A stretch of DNA of 64,000 bases from an uncultured Bacilli bacterium (lineage in GTDB: Bacteria; Bacillota_I; Bacilli_A; RF39; UBA660): NCBI GenBank assembly GCA_947624505.1, contig CANQKO010000001.1, forward strand, positions 8,948 through 72,947, read 5' to 3'. The notes under the pieces were generated by a model. It saw nothing but the letters and a program-made list of their open reading frames with translations, was not told where the DNA came from and made no database searches. A program made the translations under genes and the position numbers. This document shows positions 46,298-58,536 of this stretch, in pieces; position 1 is the first letter of the stretch; every line of letters begins with the position of its first letter.

Positions 46298-47062
46298 TTA
46301 ATTTAAGATTCTTTTTTTAATACAAAATAAACCTATTCCACTAATAATGGCAAGACCAACATAGAGAAAAACATTAATATCTGAGGTATCAGGATTTACT
46401 GGTTTTGGGGGAAGTGTTGTATAAATATCAACACCATAAACTGCTTTAATATTACAAGCCCATAGGTATCTTACATCACTTGCGTTAGATGCATCATCAA
46501 CTTTTAACTCAATAAAATCAGTAGCACCAATTTCTTTACCATAATCTAAAACCGTAAATCTAACTTTAATTTTATTATCATCTTTTTTAAATTCCCATCT
46601 ATAGGTATATACTCCATCAGTGTCAATGGTGGCAATTGGATTATTTTCTTTATTCCACCCTGCTGTTATCACAAATTTATCCCCACTTTTTTGGGTCATC
46701 ACAATTGCTTCAGTTAAATATTCAGCATCTTTATTATCTTCTTTTTTATTTATTGCAATAGATAATTCAAATAATTCCCCATTTTCATAGTTATCTTTAT
46801 TTAATCCTACAAAAACTTCTTCTTTAATTCCATCACTTAGTTTAGCTTTACTAGCTTTATTAAATGGTCCTACTTTCATTCCCTCATCTTCTTCTTTTTC
46901 ACCCTTAAGATTAGTTATATTAGAAGATACTTTAGTTTTAGATCCATAATTAGTACCAGCTTGCCAATCTTCATACTTCCAAACTGTCATCGCCTTAACA
47001 TTTAATATAAACAAAAAACAAAAAGAAACAAAAAATAGGCTAAAGCTTAAAATTTTTTTCAT
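46298..47062 (-). CDS. Secreted protein with a C-terminal NPDTSD sorting-signal-like tail (candidate SrtB substrate)
   Basis: Signal peptide MKKILSFSLFFVSFCFLFILNVKA. The C-terminus reads PPKPVNPDTSD, then INVFLYVGLAIISGIGLFCI, then KKRILN. Confidence 0.7.
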   Translation of the reverse strand: MKKILSFSLFFVSFCFLFILNVKAMTVWKYEDWQAGTNYGSKTKVSSNITNLKGEKEEDEGMKVGPFNKASKAKLSDGIKEEVFVGLNKDNYENGELFELSIAINKKEDNKDAEYLTEAIVMTQKSGDKFVITAGWNKENNPIATIDTDGVYTYRWEFKKDDNKIKVRFTVLDYGKEIGATDFIELKVDDASNASDVRYLWACNIKAVYGVDIYTTLPPKPVNPDTSDINVFLYVGLAIISGIGLFCIKKRILN

Positions 47063-47139
47063 AAATTCACTTCTTCATCACCTTTTAAATGATGATACTC
47101 CTTTCATTTACTAAACTATATGTTAAATATTTATGTTTA

Positions 47140-47997
47140 TTATTCAATTTTTCGCATTTTTATTAATTTAGCGTGAATAACAATTCTTCCACCCCTAGTA
47201 TCTAAACAAGTTGATAATGTTAAAAACTTATCATTAATATTAACCTCGGCATTTAAGGAAGCAATATTTCTATTTTGCATTCTTTCAATCCATTTTTGCT
47301 TTTCTTCCTTAGTACTAAAACTCGTCTTTAAATAATAAGTTTCTTCTTTAATCGTATATATTGAAAATATTTGAAATAACATATTTTCTTTTAAAGTTTT
47401 AAAATATATAACATAATTATCTTTATTTTCTTGCCAAGATGATAATAAAGTATTTCTTAGTGAAGCAAACATTGTTCCATCTTTTCTACTATGTCCATAA
47501 ATAATTGTATTATCACTTAGTTCATTAATACTATTTCGATAATCCATAAAGATAGACCCAGCACTATTTTTCTTATTATCAAAAGAATGATTAAGATAAT
47601 AACTATTATCACTACCCTTAACAACTGGATAGTTTATAATCGTATTTTTGATATTAATAAACCCGACAGTATCTTTATTTTGAGAAATTAATTTGGAAAA
47701 ATCAACATCATATAAAGGAAATGATGCATAGTAGTAATAATTACTATTTTTATCAAGGGGAGGATTTACTAACTCACCATCTAAAGTATCACTACCTATT
47801 TCTATATTACTAGCTATTTCCTTATTTAACTTATGAATTTTAAAATTATCAATATTCCACTTAATAATTTTAAGTAAAGAGAAAGTAAATATTAATAAAC
47901 AACAACCTAAAAGAAAATAACCCCCAATATTATGCTTACGTTTAGGTTTATTTTCTTCTTGTTTTAAATATTTTTCAATCGATATATATTTCTTCAT
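47140..47997 (-). CDS. srtB: Class B sortase (second copy)
   Basis: YPVVKGSDNSYYLNHSFDNKKNSAGSIFMDYRN, NTIIYGHSRKDGTMF, LTLSTC and RIVIHAKLI. Confidence 0.85.
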   Translation of the reverse strand: MKKYISIEKYLKQEENKPKRKHNIGGYFLLGCCLLIFTFSLLKIIKWNIDNFKIHKLNKEIASNIEIGSDTLDGELVNPPLDKNSNYYYYASFPLYDVDFSKLISQNKDTVGFINIKNTIINYPVVKGSDNSYYLNHSFDNKKNSAGSIFMDYRNSINELSDNTIIYGHSRKDGTMFASLRNTLLSSWQENKDNYVIYFKTLKENMLFQIFSIYTIKEETYYLKTSFSTKEEKQKWIERMQNRNIASLNAEVNINDKFLTLSTCLDTRGGRIVIHAKLIKMRKIE

Positions 47998-48076: not shown

Positions 48077-48829
48077 ATGGCTAAAATTTTTTATTATAAA
48101 ACTTTTGAAGATGATTTTATTAATACCTCAAATGAAGAATATAAGTTAAAAGAAAATTATAAATGGATTAATGCTAATATTTTTTATAGAATCTTATCTT
48201 TCCTTCTTTATCTTTTAGTTTTAGTATTTTCATTTATATATACTAAGTTATTTTTAAGAGTGACAATTAAGAATAAAAAAATCTTAAAAGGTGAAAAAGG
48301 TTATTTTCTATATTGTAATCATACCCAAATGCTTGGTGATGTATTTAATCCTTTTTTAATAAGTTTCCCGCATCATCCTTATATTATTTGTAGCCAAGCA
48401 AATTTAGGTATACCTATTCTAGGTAAAATACTCCCTCTAGGTGGTGCATTACCTATTCCAAATAATATTAAAGATCTATTAAAATTTACGGACGCAATTA
48501 GTTATTACGGAAAAAAACACCCCATAGTTATTTATCCTGAAGCTCATCTTTGGCCTTATGCAACATTTATTAGAGATTTTAAAACCTCTTCTTTTCACTA
48601 TCCCATAAATGAAAATAAAAAAGTTTTTACAGCCACGACTACATATACGAAATCAAAGATATTTAAAAAACCTAAAATTACTATTTATATTGATGGCCCT
48701 TTTGAAAAAGAGGAAAACTTAACTAAAAAAGAAAATATTAATAAAATTAAAGATGAGGTATATAAAACAATGGTTAAAAGAAGTAAATTAAATAATTACG
48801 AATATATCACATACAAAAAGAAAGATTAA
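48077..48829 (+). CDS. PlsC/LPLAT-like acyltransferase (variant H-x5-D box)
   Basis: TM segment, then YCNHTQMLGD and IYPEAHLWPY, reminiscent of lysophospholipid acyltransferase blocks I and III. Confidence 0.55.
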   Translation: MAKIFYYKTFEDDFINTSNEEYKLKENYKWINANIFYRILSFLLYLLVLVFSFIYTKLFLRVTIKNKKILKGEKGYFLYCNHTQMLGDVFNPFLISFPHHPYIICSQANLGIPILGKILPLGGALPIPNNIKDLLKFTDAISYYGKKHPIVIYPEAHLWPYATFIRDFKTSSFHYPINENKKVFTATTTYTKSKIFKKPKITIYIDGPFEKEENLTKKENINKIKDEVYKTMVKRSKLNNYEYITYKKKD

Positions 48830-48833
48830 CTAA

Positions 48834-49697
48834 CTAATCTTCCTTTTTTAAACCAGCAATATCACTAAATTCAAAAGTATAATCAAGTTTTTTATGATAA
48901 GCTTTCTCATAAGCTTCTACTTTTTGTTTATAATCAACTTCGGCCATTATCTTACTATTTTCTCTAACTGATTTACTAGGATCTAAGTAAATTGGTTTTA
49001 AAACGTGAACAATATATTCAACTTCCTTAAATTCTTCATTATCATCATTTTCTTTATCGATTATTTCAGTAAAGCAGGAAATAACAGGCACATTATTTTC
49101 GCAAGCAAATTCATAAGCCCCTCTTTTACAAGGTCTTGGCAAACGATAATTAAACCACATTTCTTCTTCAGGGTAAATTAAAACATAATTATTTTTTTCT
49201 AATACTTTTTTAAGTTCCGGTTTAAAGGTTTTAATAATATAATTAGGACTTTTACATAAAGGAATCGTATGTAAACTATTCATTAAGTAACCTAAAAAAC
49301 CAGGCATTGCTAAATTAGTATCTTGAATAACAATAAATGGATTCTTTTTATAGCGTTTCTTTACTAATTTTCTAATTAATAAATTATCTAGTGGATTAAA
49401 ATGATTACTGGTTACAATTGCCCCCTTATTAATATCTTTGATATTTTCTAAACCATCTATTTTAATATTTTTATCTAATTTTCTTGCTACCATACTAACA
49501 TATAAAAAAGCTAAACGACTTTCTAAAAAATAAAATATTTTATTTTTTCTAAGACTATAAAACTTATTTAAAACCCTATTAAGTTCTTCTTCACTTAATT
49601 TTGGATCATTTACTTCGACTTTTTTATTTAATTCATTATCTAAAATATTTTGTTTAATATTTTTAATAACTTCTTTTTTACTCCCACCAATAATCAT
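48834..49697 (-). CDS. 1-acyl-sn-glycerol-3-phosphate/lysophospholipid acyltransferase family protein
   Basis: VTSNHFNPLDN (HX4D) and IYPEEEMW blocks. Confidence 0.7.
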   Translation of the reverse strand: MIIGGSKKEVIKNIKQNILDNELNKKVEVNDPKLSEEELNRVLNKFYSLRKNKIFYFLESRLAFLYVSMVARKLDKNIKIDGLENIKDINKGAIVTSNHFNPLDNLLIRKLVKKRYKKNPFIVIQDTNLAMPGFLGYLMNSLHTIPLCKSPNYIIKTFKPELKKVLEKNNYVLIYPEEEMWFNYRLPRPCKRGAYEFACENNVPVISCFTEIIDKENDDNEEFKEVEYIVHVLKPIYLDPSKSVRENSKIMAEVDYKQKVEAYEKAYHKKLDYTFEFSDIAGLKKED

Positions 49698-49703
49698 CTT
49701 TAT

Positions 49704-50657
49704 TTAAAACCTTTTTTCTAAATTACTTTCAAAAACTTTTTTAAAAGTTACCTCACTATGCATAATTTCTTCTGCTCTTTTTACTAATACTTCCAAGGCT
49801 TTAGTTGCTTCTTCCTCATCTTCTTTAGTAAAGCTCTCTTTTTCTTTTAAAATGTCTTCTTTAAATAGACTATTCTTAGCATATTCCCAAAAATATTCTT
49901 CGTAATCCACCCCATCATAATGCCAAGGTTTTAAAAATAAATTATAATGGACTATTTTAGGATGATCAAAAACTTTCTTACCACCGGTTGGCATTGCATC
50001 CCATTCATTAGGTAAATGCAATATTTTGCCATAAGCCATTGCATTAATATAATCTTGATCAGGACAAACAGTATCAAAATGATATTTATTAAGTAAATAT
50101 AAGAAATGTTTTTCAAATCCTACTTCTCTTAACTTTTTCATATTCATTAAAAGAACTCCAGAATTAATATATTCATTAATACTAACTCCCGCATTAAGGC
50201 GAAAATACTCACATAATATAGGGTTGTCAGCACAAGAAATATCTGTACAACCACCAAATAAATTATCTTTTAAATCATAATTATATAACTCTGATATATC
50301 ACCAGGAATACAAGTATCACTATCAATATAAATGGCTTTATCATATTCAGGAAACATTGTAGGAATAAATATTCTAAAGTATATTGTTAAGGTAAAAAAA
50401 TCAGCTTTAAGTAAATTTTCTTTACGATTAGTTATACTTTCTAATCCATCTTTCATTTTGGTAAATATTATTTTAGCATTATCGGTTTCTAATGTTTTTA
50501 ATTTATTTATAGCATCCTCAGTTATTGATTCATAAACAATGTGTATATGATAATCATAATCTTTAGAGGCATTACGAATCAAAGAAGCAAGTGCTACAGA
50601 CAAATAAGGAGCATACCCCGCATCTATTGTAAAAAATATTGGTATTATTTCTTTCAT
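49704..50657 (-). CDS. Glycosyltransferase family 8
   Basis: IPIFFTIDAGYAPYLSVALASL, the DxD motif in YIDSDTCI, and NSGVLLMNMKKLRE. Confidence 0.8.
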   Translation of the reverse strand: MKEIIPIFFTIDAGYAPYLSVALASLIRNASKDYDYHIHIVYESITEDAINKLKTLETDNAKIIFTKMKDGLESITNRKENLLKADFFTLTIYFRIFIPTMFPEYDKAIYIDSDTCIPGDISELYNYDLKDNLFGGCTDISCADNPILCEYFRLNAGVSINEYINSGVLLMNMKKLREVGFEKHFLYLLNKYHFDTVCPDQDYINAMAYGKILHLPNEWDAMPTGGKKVFDHPKIVHYNLFLKPWHYDGVDYEEYFWEYAKNSLFKEDILKEKESFTKEDEEEATKALEVLVKRAEEIMHSEVTFKKVFESNLEKRF

Positions 50658-51482
50658 TTACTTCATCCTTCCCATAACCAATTTATATTCATCTAATATA
50701 TCGTCAAAAGAGTGAACTTTTAAGACTTTATGTAACTTATCTATTTGCCAAGGTTTAATTGTTTGCTTTTGAATCTTTGGCCAAAACTTAAATGTGGTCG
50801 TAAAATGTCTAAAAACAGTATCATCACTTTCACTTTTTTGTTCATTGTAGATACGATCAACAATTAATTTCTTTTTAACATACCAATTAATCGCGGATTG
50901 ATCTGGTAAAAGCATTTTATTTTTTTGACATAAATGCCGACACTTTTCAAAAAGTTTGGTTTTTCTTATTAAATCTAAATTTAAAAGTAAAACTCCCGAA
51001 TTAAGATAATCTTTTATTACAACTTTCTTTTTATAAAAATGACTACCATAATAATCTAAGACCCCTGCTACTTCATATGAAGTATTATCAATATTATAAA
51101 AATCACTTGGATTTTTTAAACAAACAACATCATTATCTAAATAAAGAATTTTACTAGGTAAATCACTTACTAGATCAGCATATAATCTAAGCATACAATA
51201 AGGAGTAAAAAAAGTATCAATATTGGCAAGAGGTAAACATTCATTAACAATATCTGTAACATCAAATAACTTAACAAAACTATCTTTATTTTTTTCTTTA
51301 ACTATTTCATCAAGAATACTTATTTCTTTATTTGTTAAGGGTTTATAAGTTTTATTTTCATTTTGATACTTCATTGTCAAAACATAAATACATAATTTAT
51401 CTTGTCCATTTTTTAATAATGACAAAATTGATATTACTAAACCATCAATGATGTTAGCATCTCCACAATAAAGCACATTCAT
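50658..51482 (-). CDS. Glycosyltransferase family 8
   Basis: DANIIDGLVISILSLL, the DxD motif in YLDNDVVC, and NSGVLLLNLDLIR. Confidence 0.8.
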   Translation of the reverse strand: MNVLYCGDANIIDGLVISILSLLKNGQDKLCIYVLTMKYQNENKTYKPLTNKEISILDEIVKEKNKDSFVKLFDVTDIVNECLPLANIDTFFTPYCMLRLYADLVSDLPSKILYLDNDVVCLKNPSDFYNIDNTSYEVAGVLDYYGSHFYKKKVVIKDYLNSGVLLLNLDLIRKTKLFEKCRHLCQKNKMLLPDQSAINWYVKKKLIVDRIYNEQKSESDDTVFRHFTTTFKFWPKIQKQTIKPWQIDKLHKVLKVHSFDDILDEYKLVMGRMK

Positions 51483-51493
51483 TTTTTACCTCC

Positions 51494-51940
51494 TTAATTA
51501 TTTAAATCATCACCATATATTGCTATATAATAATCATCTATTTTTTTAACTATAAAATTATTTAAACTTAAAGTATGCACATTTTCTAATCCGTAAGCTA
51601 AACCCATCCCTAAATATTTGACATAGCTTTCTTTTTTAACCCATATTTTAGTAAAGTCTTCATCACTTTTAATTAACTTCTTTTCATCTTCATCAAATAC
51701 TTTTTCCATAACTTTGGAACGCATCGTTATTTTTTCAATATCTACTCCTACTTCTTTATTTGAAATAACTAATACAGTATATTCGTAAGAATGACTAATA
51801 TTAAAATATAATTCATTATTTTTTAAATATGGTTTACCATAAGAATTATAAATTATTTCTTTTTTAATTTTATATTCATCTAATACTTTTTTTAATAATT
51901 CTTTTGATGATGTATTTTTTTCAATATATAATTTATACAT
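51494..51940 (-). CDS. 4'-phosphopantetheinyl transferase (short Sfp/AcpS-superfamily member)
   Basis: GVDIEKI and WVKKESYVKYLG motifs. Overlaps the ACP gene stop by 8 nt. Confidence 0.7.
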   Translation of the reverse strand: MYKLYIEKNTSSKELLKKVLDEYKIKKEIIYNSYGKPYLKNNELYFNISHSYEYTVLVISNKEVGVDIEKITMRSKVMEKVFDEDEKKLIKSDEDFTKIWVKKESYVKYLGMGLAYGLENVHTLSLNNFIVKKIDDYYIAIYGDDLNN

Positions 51941-52160
51941 GCTTACTTTCTATGTATTTAACAATATCATCAACGGTTTGTAAATTTTTAATATCTTTAT
52001 CTAATATTTCAATATTATATTTTTTTTCAAATGCTGCGATTAAATCAACTAAATCTAGTGATTCTAATTCTAAATCTCTAATTAAGTTAGCATTCTCCTT
52101 TATATTTTCTTTAGGTATTTCTAATACCTCACTTATTATATTAATTATCTCTTCTTTCAT
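51933..52160 (-). CDS. Acyl/peptidyl carrier protein
   Basis: 75 aa. DLELESLDLVDLI contains the phosphopantetheine-attachment Ser context. Confidence 0.8.
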   Translation of the reverse strand: MKEEIINIISEVLEIPKENIKENANLIRDLELESLDLVDLIAAFEKKYNIEILDKDIKNLQTVDDIVKYIESKHV

Positions 52161-53731
52161 TATTCTTCTCCTATTCTATTTCTTAATATTTTACCATTAT
52201 GATTTTTAATAAATTCTTTACTTCTTAATTTAAACATAGCAATTTGATGATTTTTAGGTCGATTCTTATTATAATTATAAATAAGATTTTCAAAATATTC
52301 TTCATTTCCTAAATATTCTTCATTAGGATAAATACTCGCTACTAATTTATTACCATCTTCATAAACAATGACTTCACAAATTGCTTTATCTTTCATTAAT
52401 TCACTTTCAATTTGCTCAGGGCTAATATTTTCTCCATTACTTAAAATAATAATATTCTTTTTTCTTCCGGTAATAAATAAGAACCCATCATTATCTAGAT
52501 ATCCTAAATCGCCGGTATAAAAGTAACCATCTTTTACTACGGCATTCGTTGATCCTTTATCTTTATAATAACCTTTCATTACTATATCGCCACCAACACA
52601 TATCTCACCATCAATAATTTTTACAGTTACATCCCGACAAACTTGACCAATACTGCCATCTTTATAATAATGATTACGATTTACTGAAACCACTGGTGAG
52701 CACTCGGTAATCCCATATCCATTTAAGATATTGATTCCTAAATCTCTAAACCATTCAACATATTTTTGATCTAAGTAAGCTCCCCCACAAATAATATGAT
52801 GAAGATTACCCCCAAATTCATTTAAGATATCTTTAAATAATTTATTTCTAATATCGATATTTATTTTTAATAAATAATGACTTAACTTTAAAGAATTTTT
52901 TAATAATTTTTCTTTATGCGCTAGCCTCGCATTCTTCCATATTTGCTTATAAAATGTTTCAATAAAAGCGGGAACTACAAAAATGGTATCCGGTTTATTT
53001 TCTTTTAAATCTGAAACAGCATATTTTAAACTTTTATTTAAGAATATTTCTTTACCATAATATAAGGGTTTTAAAATGCCAGTGATTATTCCAAAAGCGT
53101 GATGAAATGGTAAAAGGCTTACAACTGAACCATCGGGTTTAAATAATGATGATGCCCCGTATATATCACTTGCAATATTTTTTTGGGTTAAAACAACGGG
53201 CTTACTGGCCCCGGTTGTTCCTGATGTAAAGAAGATAGCGGCATCTTTATCATTATCAATAGCTATTTTTTTATCTTTAATTTTATTTACTTCGTAATTT
53301 ACAACTTCATCTATGGCCATTACTTTATAAGGCATATCTTTGACAAATAAATTATAAGAAGCTGAATAACAAATAATTTTTGTATCACTTTTTTTAAGGA
53401 GACTTGTTAAATCAGTTTCATTTATATCTTTATCCATTACAACACAGACATTATCACTTAATATAATTGCTAAAAAGATAACTACCCAGTTATAACTATT
53501 TTCACCAATTAAAGCAATATGTTTATTATGAAAATTATTTCTAAAATACTTGCTTACAGAGTAAACATCATTATAAACATCTTTAAATGTTTTTTTAACT
53601 TTTTCATTATCAATTTTATAACTAAATGCTATATCATTAGCATAACTTTTAAGCATTAATTCTAATAATTCACTAATATTATTGATTTTAGTGTGGGGAT
53701 AATAATCATAATCTTTATTCTGCACTTTCAT
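52160..53731 (-). CDS. AMP-dependent (ANL-family) synthetase/ligase
   Basis: FFTSGTTGASKPVVLTQKN (A3 core), GYGITE, YFYTGDLG and GRKKNIIILSNGENISP. Its stop overlaps the ACP start by 1 nt. Confidence 0.85.
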   Translation of the reverse strand: MKVQNKDYDYYPHTKINNISELLELMLKSYANDIAFSYKIDNEKVKKTFKDVYNDVYSVSKYFRNNFHNKHIALIGENSYNWVVIFLAIILSDNVCVVMDKDINETDLTSLLKKSDTKIICYSASYNLFVKDMPYKVMAIDEVVNYEVNKIKDKKIAIDNDKDAAIFFTSGTTGASKPVVLTQKNIASDIYGASSLFKPDGSVVSLLPFHHAFGIITGILKPLYYGKEIFLNKSLKYAVSDLKENKPDTIFVVPAFIETFYKQIWKNARLAHKEKLLKNSLKLSHYLLKINIDIRNKLFKDILNEFGGNLHHIICGGAYLDQKYVEWFRDLGINILNGYGITECSPVVSVNRNHYYKDGSIGQVCRDVTVKIIDGEICVGGDIVMKGYYKDKGSTNAVVKDGYFYTGDLGYLDNDGFLFITGRKKNIIILSNGENISPEQIESELMKDKAICEVIVYEDGNKLVASIYPNEEYLGNEEYFENLIYNYNKNRPKNHQIAMFKLRSKEFIKNHNGKILRNRIGEE

Positions 53732-53864
53732 TTTCTAATCTCCTCATCCTTAACTACTATTATACCATATATTAATATATTTGAAAAAGAATACTAATTA
53801 AAATAATTATGACTATAAAAAGATAATTCTTTAATTGTAAAATTATTAAAAATTGTAAATTGCA

Positions 53865-54692
53865 TTAAACTGTTAACTGTTCTTTAGACAAATTTTTTAT
53901 ATATTCTAATACACAAGTTATTGCATCACTAATTGGTATATCAAGCCAATTGTTTTTAGGGTTTTTTAAATTACTTTTATAAATATCTGAATTAAATATT
54001 TTTTTTAGCCTTGAATAAATACCATCTATTGTTTTTTCTCGCATGTTATTATCATTAAATATTATTATTTGAAATGCTTTTAATAATTTTATAGCATCTA
54101 TTTCTTTAGAAGTTATTAAGTAATAAAAATCAAATAAATCCTTATATCTGGTTGATCTAATTCCTAATTTAAGTAATGATTTTAATTTTTCTGTAAAAAT
54201 TTGTTCTGGAGAATTAATAAGTAAACTAACGCCATCATTTAAGGCATCTAAATTAAAGTAATAATTATCTTGTTCTAATTCAAATAATTTATGAACGCCT
54301 ATATCCAATTTAGTATCAATTACATAATTATAATTATCCACCAATTCTATATAAACTCTTTTTCCATTATAATCTTGGTGATGTAATTCTTCTATAGGAG
54401 ATTTTATTTTAATATTAATATTATCACTCGTTGAATTAAGTTTATTTATAAATTCTTTTATAGAGTTATCTTCTAAAGAATATTTGATAAAGTCTAAATC
54501 TAAATCGCGAGTTGCTCTTCTAGTCGAATGAGATATACTATGCATTACTACTCCACCTTTAATAGTAATATTATCTTTAAATTTACTTTTAGCAATTTTA
54601 TTTAAAATAACATCTTGACTAGCTTTAGATCTTGCGTCGATCAATTCATAGCCCAAAGCAACATTATTTCTCACTATTTCCTCTAAATTCAT
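53865..54692 (-). CDS. abiEii: AbiEii/AbiGii-family nucleotidyltransferase toxin (type IV TA)
   Basis: 275 aa. ITIKGGVVMHSISHSTRRATRDLDLDF matches the GG...T.D(L/I)D NTase motif of the DUF1814/AbiEii family. Its start overlaps the upstream stop by 1 nt (TAATG). Confidence 0.8.
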   Translation of the reverse strand: MNLEEIVRNNVALGYELIDARSKASQDVILNKIAKSKFKDNITIKGGVVMHSISHSTRRATRDLDLDFIKYSLEDNSIKEFINKLNSTSDNINIKIKSPIEELHHQDYNGKRVYIELVDNYNYVIDTKLDIGVHKLFELEQDNYYFNLDALNDGVSLLINSPEQIFTEKLKSLLKLGIRSTRYKDLFDFYYLITSKEIDAIKLLKAFQIIIFNDNNMREKTIDGIYSRLKKIFNSDIYKSNLKNPKNNWLDIPISDAITCVLEYIKNLSKEQLTV

Positions 54693-55264
54693 TAGAAAAC
54701 CTCTCGCATTAAAGCATTAGCTAAATTTGTACCGTTTTTATATAATGATAGATATTCTTCTATTTTATACATATCTAAATCATCAACAATTTTTCGATAA
54801 TTTAAAATTATTTCTTTATAATAATCAAAAGGAATTTGATTTCTTTTTCTGATTAATTCAACTAATAATCTTTCTTTATTATATATTTTTACTTTTTCTC
54901 CATCAATTATAATCTCTTCTTTACCTGCATTTAACTTTTCCTTAGGAACCCACGTTTGATCAACCTTATTATCTTTTATAATATTGGAATTTCTGCTAGT
55001 AGCAATATAAGTTTTGTTTGGAATAACATCAGTTAAATCATAATAATAAAATGCTGAGTCCATTGTTATAATTGAACTAGGATACTTTTTGGCTACTGCA
55101 ACTACTGGATTTACTAAATCTTTATCAGAATAAATTCCACGTTTAATTTTAAATACCTCTTTTTTGACTAAGGCTTTTGCTAAATTATATCTAGTCCCAT
55201 ATTTTTTTAAAATTTCTTTTCCTGTATAAAGCATAATATCACTCCTTTTCAAAATACCGTACAT
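54692..55264 (-). CDS. abiEi: AbiEi-family antitoxin/transcriptional regulator
   Basis: GKEILKKYGTRYNLAKALVKKEVFKIKRGIYSD is the AbiEi_4 N-terminal wHTH pattern. The ~190-aa size fits. The start could be Met1 or Met11. Confidence 0.78.
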   Translation of the reverse strand: MYGILKRSDIMLYTGKEILKKYGTRYNLAKALVKKEVFKIKRGIYSDKDLVNPVVAVAKKYPSSIITMDSAFYYYDLTDVIPNKTYIATSRNSNIIKDNKVDQTWVPKEKLNAGKEEIIIDGEKVKIYNKERLLVELIRKRNQIPFDYYKEIILNYRKIVDDLDMYKIEEYLSLYKNGTNLANALMREVF

Positions 55265-55392: not shown

Positions 55393-58300
55393 TTATTTAA
55401 CCAAAAGATTATTATTATCAAAATCAATTAAATTTTTAATATCTTCTTCTGTTAAAGAAGATAAAGAAACATTACCATCAGTACCTTTTTCAATTAATTT
55501 ATCAGCCAATATTTGTTTTTTCTTTTGCAATTCCAATATTTTTTCTTCAATTGTTCCATTCGCAATTAATTTTATAACTTCTACTTTTTTCGTTTGACCT
55601 ATGCGGTGAGCTCTATCCGTTGCTTGATTTTCAACTTGCGGATTCCACCATAAATCTAAGTGGATTACTACATCAGCACTAGTTAAGTTAAGACCCGTGC
55701 CTCCACTTTTAAGGGTTATTAAAAACACATTAGTTTTATCCGTATTAAATTTATCAACTAAATCTTGTCTTACTTTGCCTTTAACACTACCATCAATTTG
55801 ATAAAAAGTTACATTATTTTCCTTAAATTTATCTCTAACTATATCTAAAGCTTTTTTAAAACTAGTAAAGATTAATATTTTATGACCATTAGCAATACTT
55901 TCTAAAACTGTTTTTGTTAATTCATCAATTTTGGAACTAGCACCATCATAGTTTTCGTAAACTAATTTTGGATCAATACATATTTGTCTTAAACGCATCA
56001 AAAGGGTAATTATCTCAACTCTTTTGCTACTAAAACTTCCCTCTTTTAAAAGCTCATTAATCTTTTCTTTAACATTTTTAACTTCCATTGCATAAACTTT
56101 CTTTTGTTTTTCATCTAAATCTATAAAAATATTATTTTCTATTTTATCGGGTAATTCCTTTACTACATCACTCTTTTTTCTTCTTAAAATAAAAGGTGAT
56201 GTTAAAGCTTTTAAGTTAGCAATTTTTTGGCTTGCTAACTCATCTAAATCTTTAAAATGATATTTTTCATTAAAACGACTAGTACTGCTTAAATATCCTG
56301 GCATTATAAAATCAAAAATACTCCATAACTCTAAAATGGAATTTTCAAGAGGAGTCCCCGTTAGAGCAATTTTAGTTTTTGCCATTATACTTTTAACAGA
56401 TTTAGTTATTAAAGCATTAGGGTTTTTAATATTTTGAGCTTCATCAATAACACATACCTCAAAATTAAAATCTTGATATAGGGATATGTCCTCTCTTAAA
56501 GTACCATAAGAAGTAATAAATACTTCTCCATCTTGAGCATTTATCATTTTAATTCGACTATCTTTATTACCAGTTAAAACTTTAACATTAAACATTTTAT
56601 CAAAAAGAGTAAATTCTTTTAACCAATTATAAACAAGAGAAGTAGGACAAACAACTAAAAATTTACTATCTTTCTTTTGTTCATAAATTTTTCTAAAAAA
56701 GTAAATAGTTTGAATTGTTTTACCAAGGCCCATTTCATCAGCCAAAATTCCTCCTAAATCACACATATAGATGTTATATAACCACTCAACTCCGGTTATT
56801 TGATAAGGTCTTAACAATTCTTTTTCTTCTTTTTTAAAAGTTAATTTACTATCTTTATATTCATTAAAATTATTAATAAAATTATCAAATAAATTATTAG
56901 TTTTTATATTGGGATATTTCTTTCTTTTTAAATAATCCAAATAAATGGCTTGATACTTTGGTATTACGCCTTCATTATCTTTTAAAGGAATATCCAAATC
57001 ATCTAATAAATTACTTAAATCATTAATGGCTTCATCTTCTAAAGAGACAATATCCCCATTTTTTAAACGGTAATATTTTTGTTTATTTCTTAAAGATTTA
57101 ACTAAATTAGATATTTCTTCATCATTTATATTATCAATACTAAACGAATAATGCATTATATTATCTTCCCCAATAGAGAAATTACTATTAACATTGACTT
57201 TCTTTTTAATATTAGTATTTTTAATTTTTTCTGATGTATATACTTCATATTTTTCCGCTAATTCAGGTAACCCGTTTTCTAAAAAATTAACAATTAATTC
57301 TAAATCATCTAAATAAATTTTATTATTTTCAACTTTAAAATAATAGCTTTCAATATTATTTAATACCTCGTATTCATATTCTATATCACGAAGCAAATCT
57401 TTTGTATCAGCAAAATAATCTATTTCCGTATTATTATAGATAAACTTAATTTGACACATTATTTCATTGGCAAGCATATCAAAATACAATTTGGCATTTG
57501 GTTTCATAAAAGACATTACTTCTTTTAAATCATCATCTACTTTTAGATCATTTTTAATAATTGGTAATATTCCTTTATTAAAATTATCTAAATCATCTTT
57601 AGAAAATTCTAAGTTACTAATGTTATTTTCATCAAGTAATTTTAATAATTTTTGATAATCCTTATTATTATAATATATTTCATTTTTATATAATACATAT
57701 TCATAATTATTAGTAAGAGGTAAAATATTTTCATTATTAAAACTTAAATTATATAGATCATCTTTTTTACTTAAATTTATATCAATGGGTAAATTATCTT
57801 TAATACCATTAACAAGGCCAATATCTTCAACATAAAAACTTCTATTTTTTAAAAGCTTTAAAAGTTTTAAAGCATTAGCGTTTTCAAAAGTTAATTGACC
57901 ATAGTTATAATTACCATTATCGATAATAAAATTTAATAATTCTTCATCTTCTTTAGTAAAATAATATTCGTCTTTATTATATTTAAAAGATTTACCAAAT
58001 AATACTTCGCCTTCCCCATCTTCATATACTCTAATAAATTGATTATACTTGGAATTAACAGCATATAAACGATCATAACCAATTTTTAATTTTAAATATA
58101 TATATGTCCGATAATAATTATTAATATCCAAAGAATATTCTACTTTCAACTCTTTTTTCACTAATTTCTTAGCACTAGAAAAACTATTCAAAATCATTTT
58201 GGAAATACTTTTATTATCTGTTTTAACACTTTCAAATACTTCTGAATTCATTATAACGGCCGGAATATGAGCACAAGAATGAAATCGACCAAAATCATAA

Positions 58301-58536
58301 CAATTGCAATAAAAAGTTCTTATTTGGTCATTATACATTGTTATTTTGACAGTTGATAAAGAAGAATAATAATTAGCTTCAGATACTTTAAATGTATAGC
58401 CTTTAATAAAGCCTGTATCACTTTTGGTTACTAATTCAATATCTTCATAATCATAATATTTAGCTTCTTTAATATGCCTATCTAAAATATACCCATCTAT
58501 TTGATCTAATAATTTTTCTCTCATATTTAACCTCAA
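55393..58536 (-). CDS. SNF2-family helicase/ATPase with an N-terminal SWIM zinc finger (YwqA/RapA-like)
   Basis: SWIM motif CNCYDFGRFHSCAH. SNF2 motifs LRPYQITGVEWL, ADEMGLGKT, DEAQNIKN, LTGTPLENS and DLWWNPQVENQATDRAHRIGQ. Confidence 0.9.
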   Translation of the reverse strand: MRLNMREKLLDQIDGYILDRHIKEAKYYDYEDIELVTKSDTGFIKGYTFKVSEANYYSSLSTVKITMYNDQIRTFYCNCYDFGRFHSCAHIPAVIMNSEVFESVKTDNKSISKMILNSFSSAKKLVKKELKVEYSLDINNYYRTYIYLKLKIGYDRLYAVNSKYNQFIRVYEDGEGEVLFGKSFKYNKDEYYFTKEDEELLNFIIDNGNYNYGQLTFENANALKLLKLLKNRSFYVEDIGLVNGIKDNLPIDINLSKKDDLYNLSFNNENILPLTNNYEYVLYKNEIYYNNKDYQKLLKLLDENNISNLEFSKDDLDNFNKGILPIIKNDLKVDDDLKEVMSFMKPNAKLYFDMLANEIMCQIKFIYNNTEIDYFADTKDLLRDIEYEYEVLNNIESYYFKVENNKIYLDDLELIVNFLENGLPELAEKYEVYTSEKIKNTNIKKKVNVNSNFSIGEDNIMHYSFSIDNINDEEISNLVKSLRNKQKYYRLKNGDIVSLEDEAINDLSNLLDDLDIPLKDNEGVIPKYQAIYLDYLKRKKYPNIKTNNLFDNFINNFNEYKDSKLTFKKEEKELLRPYQITGVEWLYNIYMCDLGGILADEMGLGKTIQTIYFFRKIYEQKKDSKFLVVCPTSLVYNWLKEFTLFDKMFNVKVLTGNKDSRIKMINAQDGEVFITSYGTLREDISLYQDFNFEVCVIDEAQNIKNPNALITKSVKSIMAKTKIALTGTPLENSILELWSIFDFIMPGYLSSTSRFNEKYHFKDLDELASQKIANLKALTSPFILRRKKSDVVKELPDKIENNIFIDLDEKQKKVYAMEVKNVKEKINELLKEGSFSSKRVEIITLLMRLRQICIDPKLVYENYDGASSKIDELTKTVLESIANGHKILIFTSFKKALDIVRDKFKENNVTFYQIDGSVKGKVRQDLVDKFNTDKTNVFLITLKSGGTGLNLTSADVVIHLDLWWNPQVENQATDRAHRIGQTKKVEVIKLIANGTIEEKILELQKKKQILADKLIEKGTDGNVSLSSLTEEDIKNLIDFDNNNLLVK

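Follow-up and report, generated by a model that had tools for sequence, protein, structure and literature searches.

In Escherichia coli, Aas fuses a 2-acyl-glycerophosphoethanolamine (2-acyl-GPE) acyltransferase to an acyl-acyl carrier protein (ACP) synthetase, and the split chlamydial pair AasC/LpaT follows the same logic: an ANL-family ligase charges the ACP with free fatty acid and an enzyme of the lysophospholipid acyltransferase (LPLAT) type transfers the acyl group to a lipid. We analysed a locus that probably follows this logic too, at positions 48077-53731 of a 64,000-nucleotide window of DNA on a 100-kb contig from a rabbit-gut Bacilli metagenome-assembled genome (MAG; 1.23 Mb, 94.5% complete, 26% GC). 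Its seven genes encode an adenylating ligase (LIG), an ACP, a phosphopantetheinyl transferase (PPTase; gene PPT), two family-8 glycosyltransferases (GT8a and GT8b) and two LPLAT-type acyltransferases (AT1 and AT2).

Compared with Aas, the window cluster encodes separate proteins and has its own ACP and PPTase, whereas Aas uses the host AcpP. Moreover, two GT8 genes are obligatorily linked to the cluster and there is no LplT-type transporter. Given that AT1 and AT2 carry no FPEGTR block, the acceptor is probably not a lysophospholipid, unlike that of Aas. DltA-DltC offers a second parallel, as it shows the same translational coupling of an adenylating enzyme with a small carrier, but the cluster contains neither DltB (an MBOAT protein) nor DltD and its carrier is of the AcpP type. 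Sugar hydroxyls of glycolipids are acylated at the membrane surface by other LPLAT-fold enzymes, namely mycobacterial PatA, which acylates a mannose of phosphatidylinositol mannosides (PIM), and LpxM, the late acyltransferase of lipid A. However, AT1 and AT2 share only 11-15% identity with these two, with TM-scores of 0.45-0.5, PlsC and glycerol-3-phosphate acyltransferases (GPATs) score equally well or better against them, and PatA uses acyl-CoA.

The closest relative is a gene set flanking horA on plasmids of beer-spoilage Lactobacillaceae, for example Pediococcus claussenii (plasmid pPECL-8), Levilactobacillus brevis, P. damnosus and S. paracollinoides. It comprises the same two glycosyltransferase and two acyltransferase genes in the same order. 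There, horA is inserted between GT8a and AT2, and ligase, ACP and PPTase are all missing, whereas the window cluster lacks horA, lies on a non-plasmid contig of a reduced genome and has LIG-ACP-PPT added. An initial annotation of this DNA could match the combination to no described pathway; our comparison agrees: it revealed no characterised locus that matches, and the function of the horA-flanking genes has itself been called unknown (PMC3765258, PMC4394401). Already known are the enzyme families, the ligase-ACP-LPLAT logic (Aas, AasC/LpaT) and the glycosyltransferase-acyltransferase core as an unexplained horA neighbour. We did not find described the seven-gene form, its two-part architecture, the rule that the supply genes are added where the host has no acyl-ACP pool, or the spread over RF39-like Bacilli and Saccharibacteria-labelled genomes. 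We propose that the locus is probably a two-part accessory system, in which a private acyl-ACP supply feeds a module for an extra-acylated diglycosyl membrane lipid.

Seven genes in two sub-modules

The features of the locus are as follows.

LIG, 52160-53731, minus strand: 523 aa; ANL-family adenylating enzyme, predicted fatty acyl-ACP synthetase
ACP, 51933-52160, minus strand: 75 aa; AcpP-type acyl carrier protein, attachment Ser in LESLD
PPT, 51494-51940, minus strand: 148 aa; short Sfp/AcpT-like phosphopantetheinyl transferase
GT8a, 50658-51482, minus strand: retaining family-8 glycosyltransferase, no transmembrane (TM) helix
GT8b, 49704-50657, minus strand: retaining family-8 glycosyltransferase, no TM helix
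AT1, 48834-49697, minus strand: soluble or peripheral LPLAT acyltransferase, HX4D, helical N-terminal extension
AT2, 48077-48829, plus strand: membrane-anchored LPLAT paralogue, invariant H-X5-D; convergent with AT1
Intergenic region, 53732-53864, minus strand: 5' of LIG; promoter-like element and ribosome-binding site (RBS)

The open reading frame (ORF) coordinates agree with the initial description of LIG, ACP, PPT, GT8a, GT8b and AT1 as six tightly coupled minus-strand genes, and the motifs quoted there (TSGTTGASKP, LYLDNDV, IYIDSDT and NHFNPLD) were all found. One nucleotide is common to the LIG stop and the ACP start, ACP and PPT overlap by 8 nt, the GT8b start abuts the GT8a stop directly, and a gap of 4 nt separates the convergent AT1 and AT2. 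The RBS AGGATGAGGAG precedes the LIG ATG. A scan for promoters and terminators placed a promoter-like TTTTCA-17-(TG)TATAAT element at 53787-53759, 5' of LIG, and returned no terminator-like site within the seven-gene block; both results are weak evidence, the scan as a whole having found 53 hits against 49.4 expected from shuffles, and so no enrichment.

Using tblastn and phmmer, we located the seven proteins in about 100 related loci and counted distinct loci. All seven genes were adjacent in about 28 loci, the PPTase alone was missing in about 11, and the four-gene core AT2-GT8a-GT8b-AT1 stood alone in about 26. Identities lay between 50% and 99%, while the genes on either side changed from locus to locus. 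The genes thus stay together in about 40 species, more than chance would allow, which is the co-conservation on which the initial annotation had made its proposal depend.

Rearranged loci revealed how the genes are grouped. One sub-module is inverted in L016 and L130, with all parts kept, while GT8a-GT8b-AT1-AT2 form one co-directional operon in L017. In about 40 loci, these rearranged ones included, LIG-ACP never occurred without the GT8/AT core. AT2 is part of the system, as L017 and all core-only Firmicutes have it co-directionally in the same operon; the second LPLAT gene, correctly described at first as convergent at 4 nt, is therefore more than a neighbour. The system consists of two sub-modules, LIG-ACP-PPT (the add-on) and GT8a-GT8b-AT1-AT2 (the core). 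The 'Mycoplasma sp. CAG:956' subclade has one ORF of about 585 aa that combines GT8a with GT8b, and no AT2 within the locus, so that these loci (L105:6247-8001, L112, L113, L121 and L122) have a single acyltransferase.

All-against-all clustering of the flanking ORFs gave no universal family that could count as an eighth linked gene, only lineage-specific synteny and a recurrent response-regulator/histidine-kinase pair. This pair lies immediately upstream and co-directional in about nine loci (for example, L018:5986-7918, L105:2180-3902, L136:3624-5416 and L158:3624-5422), which comprise loci with LIG-ACP as well as core-only Clostridia loci, and hints at sensor-controlled, stress-regulated expression of the module. 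The window itself contains no such pair. A group of Clostridia loci (L026-L033) with a ligase of 33-38% identity was rejected as the same system, as none of the other genes is found there.

A predicted acyl-ACP supply in hosts without fatty-acid synthesis

A profile search of the genome collection with AT1 recovered more than 580 relatives. The core alone, as a co-directional operon, was found in four species of Levilactobacillus, in Muricomes intestini DSM 29489 and in many Lachnospiraceae, Ruminococcus, Oscillospiraceae and Clostridia MAGs, beside unrelated neighbours (GH30, TetR, ArsD, insertion sequence elements, MucBP and amino-acid ABC transport). LIG-ACP(-PPT), by comparison, occurred only in genomes of 0.7-1.4 Mb, labelled Bacilli, Tenericutes, Mycoplasma sp. 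CAG:956, Clostridium sp. CAG:609 or Candidatus Saccharibacteria/Nanosyncoccaceae. To compare the hosts, the genomes behind 47 loci were searched for ketoacyl synthase and PlsX, with the following result.

Add-on hosts (21 genomes): ketoacyl synthase 0/21, PlsX 0/21
Core-only Firmicutes (24 genomes): ketoacyl synthase 14/24, PlsX 24/24
Core-only Saccharibacteria-labelled MAGs (2 genomes): ketoacyl synthase 0/2, PlsX 0/2

Among these genomes, the add-on form is present in two unrelated lineages that lack type II fatty-acid synthesis (FASII) and never in a PlsX-positive host. The association between add-on and PlsX gave a Fisher p of 2.6e-13, a value that overstates independence: a single branch of the AT1 maximum-likelihood tree splits the two forms (UFBoot 98, SH-aLRT 99), so that the add-on need have been gained or lost only once, and one split stands for one or a few events, not 45 independent observations. 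As the add-on is found only where the host is without an ACP-linked acyl pool, the simplest reading is that the core acyltransferases draw on acyl-ACP and that, for hosts without such a pool, the module comes with a ligase for fatty acids, an ACP and usually a PPTase. The possible donor chemistry is narrowed by this apparent dependence of the core on acyl-ACP.

The seven-gene set is accessory and mobile. PlsY was absent from all 121 genomes of the order, while AT1 orthologues were found in about 8 of them, including two of the four genomes of the same genus, which marks the cluster as accessory. A PPTase of any kind was present in 25/121 genomes and absent from 96/121, and every cluster-positive genome of the order has a PPTase beside the cluster. 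In a lineage generally without this enzyme, the cluster thus brings its own. The initial proposal of a dedicated unit for acid activation, with its own carrier and PPTase, is well supported by these two patterns, namely the restriction of the add-on to hosts without an ACP-linked acyl pool and the scarcity of PPTases in the lineage. We discarded the idea that the cluster is the organism's essential phosphatidate route, given that PlsY is missing from 121/121 genomes yet the cluster is found in only about eight.

The window's own genome yielded no ketoacyl synthase, PlsX, PlsY or DegV/FakB. The cluster PPTase is its only PPTase and the cluster ACP its only AcpP-type carrier. Loss of fatty-acid synthesis is documented for RF39-type gut Bacilli (PMC6784871). 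Probably the genome studied here is one of them. These Bacilli and the Saccharibacteria are abundant in the gut, uncultured and without fatty-acid synthesis; for them, the locus offers a concrete, testable route for scavenged fatty acids through a ligase, a private ACP and a PPTase.

Such a route could also serve housekeeping, with LIG-ACP-PPT supplying the whole of phospholipid synthesis with exogenous fatty acids and the GT8 and AT genes adjacent only incidentally. Firmicute PlsC enzymes use acyl-ACP, and both the sole AcpP-type ACP and the sole PPTase of a genome that is missing FakB, PlsX and FASII lie in the cluster, as this explanation would predict. We nevertheless consider it highly improbable, because the cluster is confined to about 8/121 genomes of the order and 2/4 of the genus, LIG-ACP is never without the GT8/AT core in about 40 loci, and the genome encodes another, FadD-like ligase next to a PlsC-type gene. 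That 577-aa ligase is encoded elsewhere (C19:636-3028), immediately ahead of the gene for a canonical PlsC-type acyltransferase and murF; the neighbour of murE is another PlsC-type gene (C2:11707-12285).

Two further carrier-like genes were observed in the same assembly. A Dlt-like operon (C7:36351-41774) encodes a DltA-like ligase, a 76-aa carrier, an MBOAT protein and DltD-like genes, with an extra gene resembling pyridoxal-phosphate-dependent decarboxylases/racemases between ligase and carrier; this carrier may depend on the cluster PPT, the genome's only PPTase. On a short contig (C58, 2957 bp), an 80-aa ACP-like ORF adjoins a CocE/NonD-like hydrolase; with a GC content of 32% against 26% for the genome, the contig may be foreign or mis-binned.

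The supply proteins themselves are conserved in their catalytic motifs, as are all seven proteins of the locus across 45-89 orthologues. LIG matches PF00501 (176 bits; all PF matches given here are from Pfam), and both its TSGTTGASKP motif and the C-terminal A10 lysine (NGKILR) are kept in 56 orthologues. Against NCBIfam, its best score was to MenE (179 bits, cut-off 330), followed by long-chain fatty acid-CoA ligase (176 bits, cut-off 476), and the Aas models matched only partially (114-121 bits, cut-offs 1221 and 1349). As the curated equivalog cut-offs for Aas, FadD and MenE are not reached, LIG represents a distinct subfamily. In the related loci, LIG always has ACP next in order. This adjacency, the 1-nt overlap of the two genes and the restriction to hosts without ketoacyl synthase and PlsX hint indirectly that LIG may pass the acyl group to holo-ACP, not CoA.

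The carrier matches PF00550 (50.6 bits) and passes the NCBIfam model NF002148 'acyl carrier protein' (72.2 against a cut-off of 71), whereas it falls short of the DltC model (19.9 bits, cut-off 68); its ESLD attachment site is kept in at least 95% of orthologues. PPT matches PF01648 (47.4 bits) and, in NCBIfam, an AusB-like profile (80 bits, covering positions 68-168 of 205), with GxD and W..KE.y.K motifs kept in 45 orthologues. All of its orthologues are 142-154 aa long, unlike the two-half, pseudo-dimeric architecture of Sfp (about 200-240 aa). Nine Saccharibacteria-labelled loci (L101, L104, L109, L110, L114, L116, L130, L140 and L149) carry LIG-ACP and the core with no PPTase gene.

Core enzymes and the predicted acceptor

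AT1 matches PF01553 with 61.8 bits, while AT2, at 21.8 bits, lies just under the 23-bit cut-off. In AT1, the HX4D motif has an invariant H99 and a D104 kept at at least 90%. AT2 does not conform to the HX4D spacing, its H82 and D88, invariant in 57 sequences, forming H-X5-D. It is still placed in the LPLAT superfamily on the basis of its homology to AT1 (hhalign probability 99%, E 7.5e-18, 217 columns), which identifies the two as paralogues, and its PlsC-like fold. Block III reads YPEEEMWFNYR in AT1 and YPEAHLWP (YPEAH.W) in AT2, so that both have YPE-x-(E/H)-x-W in place of FPEGTR, the block with which PlsC and GPATs bind their glycerol-phosphate acceptor. They thereby make up a distinct LPLAT sub-family, whereas FPEGTR or FPEGTF is kept in the two PF01553 proteins encoded elsewhere in the genome. 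A single TM helix (residues 35-53) makes AT2 the sole TM protein of the seven, and no TM segment was predicted in AT1.

Sequence and profile searches of the PDB with AT1 and AT2 gave no significant match, and their structural placement comes from fold comparison only. AlphaFold2 models (pLDDT 90 for AT1 and 91.9 for AT2) were compared using Foldseek. AT1 matched PatA (6e-7), PlsC (2e-6) and plant and algal GPATs about equally well, with a probability of 1.00, while AT2 matched PlsC first (TM 0.58), then LpxM (7e-5) and PatA (2e-4). The modelled folds identify both proteins as LPLAT enzymes and do not tell acceptors apart.

These matches also bear on a de novo glycerolipid route, in which AT2 and AT1 would be acyl-ACP-dependent glycerol-3-phosphate and lysophosphatidate acyltransferases, the GT8s would make ordinary diglycosyl-diacylglycerol and no sugar would be acylated. 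The best fold match of AT2 is PlsC, and its profile weakly matches GPAT1; plant and algal GPATs are among the fold matches of AT1; a lineage without PlsX and PlsY needs a glycerol-3-phosphate acyltransferase from somewhere; and a PAP2 phosphatase is encoded elsewhere in the genome, by motif, as are CdsA and two CDP-alcohol phosphatidyltransferases. We regard this route as unlikely all the same. AT1 and AT2 are without FPEGTR, whereas canonical PlsC-type genes exist elsewhere in the genome, and 113/121 genomes of the order have neither the cluster nor PlsY, which argues that it is not the lineage's phosphatidate route. In core-only hosts, which own PlsX (24/24) and presumably PlsY and PlsC, the extra enzymes would be redundant, and in the CAG:956 subclade one acyltransferase suffices.

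Both glycosyltransferases match PF01501 well above its cut-off of 24.3 (GT8a, 71.1 bits; GT8b, 162.8 bits). Conserved motifs are LYLD.D, NSGvLL, PDQ and HF...KPW in 79 orthologues of GT8a, and IY.DsD, NSG, PDQDY and H...KPW in 85 of GT8b; TM segments were predicted in neither. The PDB relatives of GT8b are the GT8 domain of WbbM, LgtC and GlyE. These act on O-antigen, lipooligosaccharide and serine-rich-repeat proteins, and so raise the prospect of a non-lipid acceptor: the module might decorate a teichoic-acid precursor, a wall polysaccharide or a sortase-anchored surface protein. LPLAT enzymes typically use lipid acceptors, and no polymerase, flippase, undecaprenyl-phosphate enzyme or substrate protein is co-conserved with the module. 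By predicted topology, moreover, all four core enzymes are cytoplasmic or at the inner leaflet. A sortase B-substrate pair adjoins the cluster in the window and in L002/L089, as would suit a surface protein, but that neighbourhood is limited to a few close relatives. Also in favour of such an acceptor, the beer literature lists the genes loosely under 'phospholipid or cell wall biosynthesis' (PMC4394401). Weighing these points, we consider a non-lipid acceptor improbable.

The reading that we favour, a private acyl-ACP supply feeding a module for an extra-acylated diglycosyl membrane lipid, can be set out as a series of steps. PPT would turn apo-ACP into holo-ACP, and LIG would adenylate an exogenous fatty acid and thioester it to the cluster ACP. 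The initial annotation had left the choice between a fatty acid and another carboxylic acid; a scavenged fatty acid is the most likely substrate. At the cytoplasmic membrane face, where the GT8a/GT8b/AT1/AT2 module is predicted to act, GT8a and GT8b would act in succession to place two hexoses in alpha linkage on a lipid, diacylglycerol being the simplest choice of acceptor. AT1, as a peripheral enzyme, and AT2, through its one-TM anchor, would then move acyl chains from acyl-ACP onto this glycosylated lipid, the presumed acceptor, giving an extra-acylated diglycosyl membrane lipid. By analogy with the core orthologues next to horA in beer-spoilage bacteria, such a product would likely harden the membrane and lower its permeability to hop acids in beer and to bile or fatty acids in the gut.

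Several observations weigh against this reading, in addition to the few independent events behind the host association. The two core-only Saccharibacteria-labelled loci (L098 and L106) have no LIG-ACP nearby, although their genomes are also without PlsX and ketoacyl synthase. All of the best family matches of LIG are under cut-off and do not fix its substrate. We know of no bacterial GT8 that makes glycosyl-diacylglycerol, the known synthases belonging to GT4, GT28 and GT2. No flippase, phosphatase or acceptor-specific gene was found linked to the module, and the absence of AT2 from the CAG:956 subclade indicates that two acylations are not obligatory. Finally, we found no biochemical characterisation of the module in full-text searches of the literature, which leaves the product a guess.

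A bolder version, which we put forward only tentatively and hold to be rather less probable than the two-part system itself, is that the core makes an undescribed class of lipid: a GT8-built alpha-diglycosyl lipid with one or two extra acyl chains on its sugars, serving as a transferable 'membrane armour'. If true, this lipid would explain part of the plasmid-borne hop tolerance of brewery bacteria, and the same lipid would explain tolerance of bile and fatty acids in gut Firmicutes, RF39 and Saccharibacteria. LIG-ACP-PPT would in that case make this the first known mobile lipid pathway to bring along a complete acyl-ACP system of its own, and so to function in hosts that no longer have any ACP. 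A new acylated glycolipid as product would bear on membrane stress tolerance, on brewery quality-control markers and possibly on host recognition of gut glycolipids.

The core on horA plasmids and the neighbourhood of the locus

Searching with AT1, we identified 22 plasmids, mostly from beer-spoilage Lactobacillaceae, together with a Roseburia megaplasmid. The gene order on pPECL-8 and pL11994-7 is glycosyltransferase, horA (a 583-aa ABC exporter on the opposite strand), acyltransferase, GT8 and LPLAT. These plasmid genes are gene-specific, one-to-one orthologues of the window core, with identities of 46% for GT8a, 39% for AT2, 40% for GT8b and 41% for AT1. The block has been described as consistently located around horA and horizontally acquired (PMC4394401) and, in L. 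brevis, belongs to the plasmid genes exclusive to beer spoilers (PMC6533708, Table 6). Its transcription in beer exceeds that of horA more than threefold, and the authors of that study call for work on its role (PMC3765258). The system described here is thus a candidate explanation for horA neighbours that have gone unexplained for about 20 years while being transcribed above horA in beer, and Levilactobacillus, Pediococcus and Muricomes intestini provide tractable, cultured hosts for identifying the product.

Of 102 other loci, only 7 have a HorA-like exporter near the module, suggesting that the horA link is specific to the brewery plasmids; the same count gives no support to a general role of HorA as the module's dedicated flippase. 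No ABC exporter lies in or beside the window cluster. The best plasmid match to AT1 is on the 242-kb plasmid NZ_CP135163.1 of Roseburia sp. 831b (133934-134776, 50% identity, with an adjoining GT8), which indicates that the core is plasmid-borne in gut Clostridia too, not just in brewery lactobacilli.

The genes around the window cluster were also inspected. Adjoining AT2, at 46298-47997, are genes for a sortase of class B (TIGR03064, 160 bits) and for a secreted protein of 254 aa whose C terminus carries an NPDTS-like sorting signal; divergent promoters lie in a 79-nt gap. The same pair is also found in L002/L089, at a distance of about 2 kb from the cluster, but not in most other loci. Directly upstream of the cluster, at 53865-55264, is an AbiEi/AbiEii-like toxin-antitoxin pair, followed at 55393-58536 by a SWIM-SNF2 helicase gene. 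In L005 and L021, the SNF2 gene is found on the opposite side of the cluster, which fits a variable, rearranging neighbourhood.

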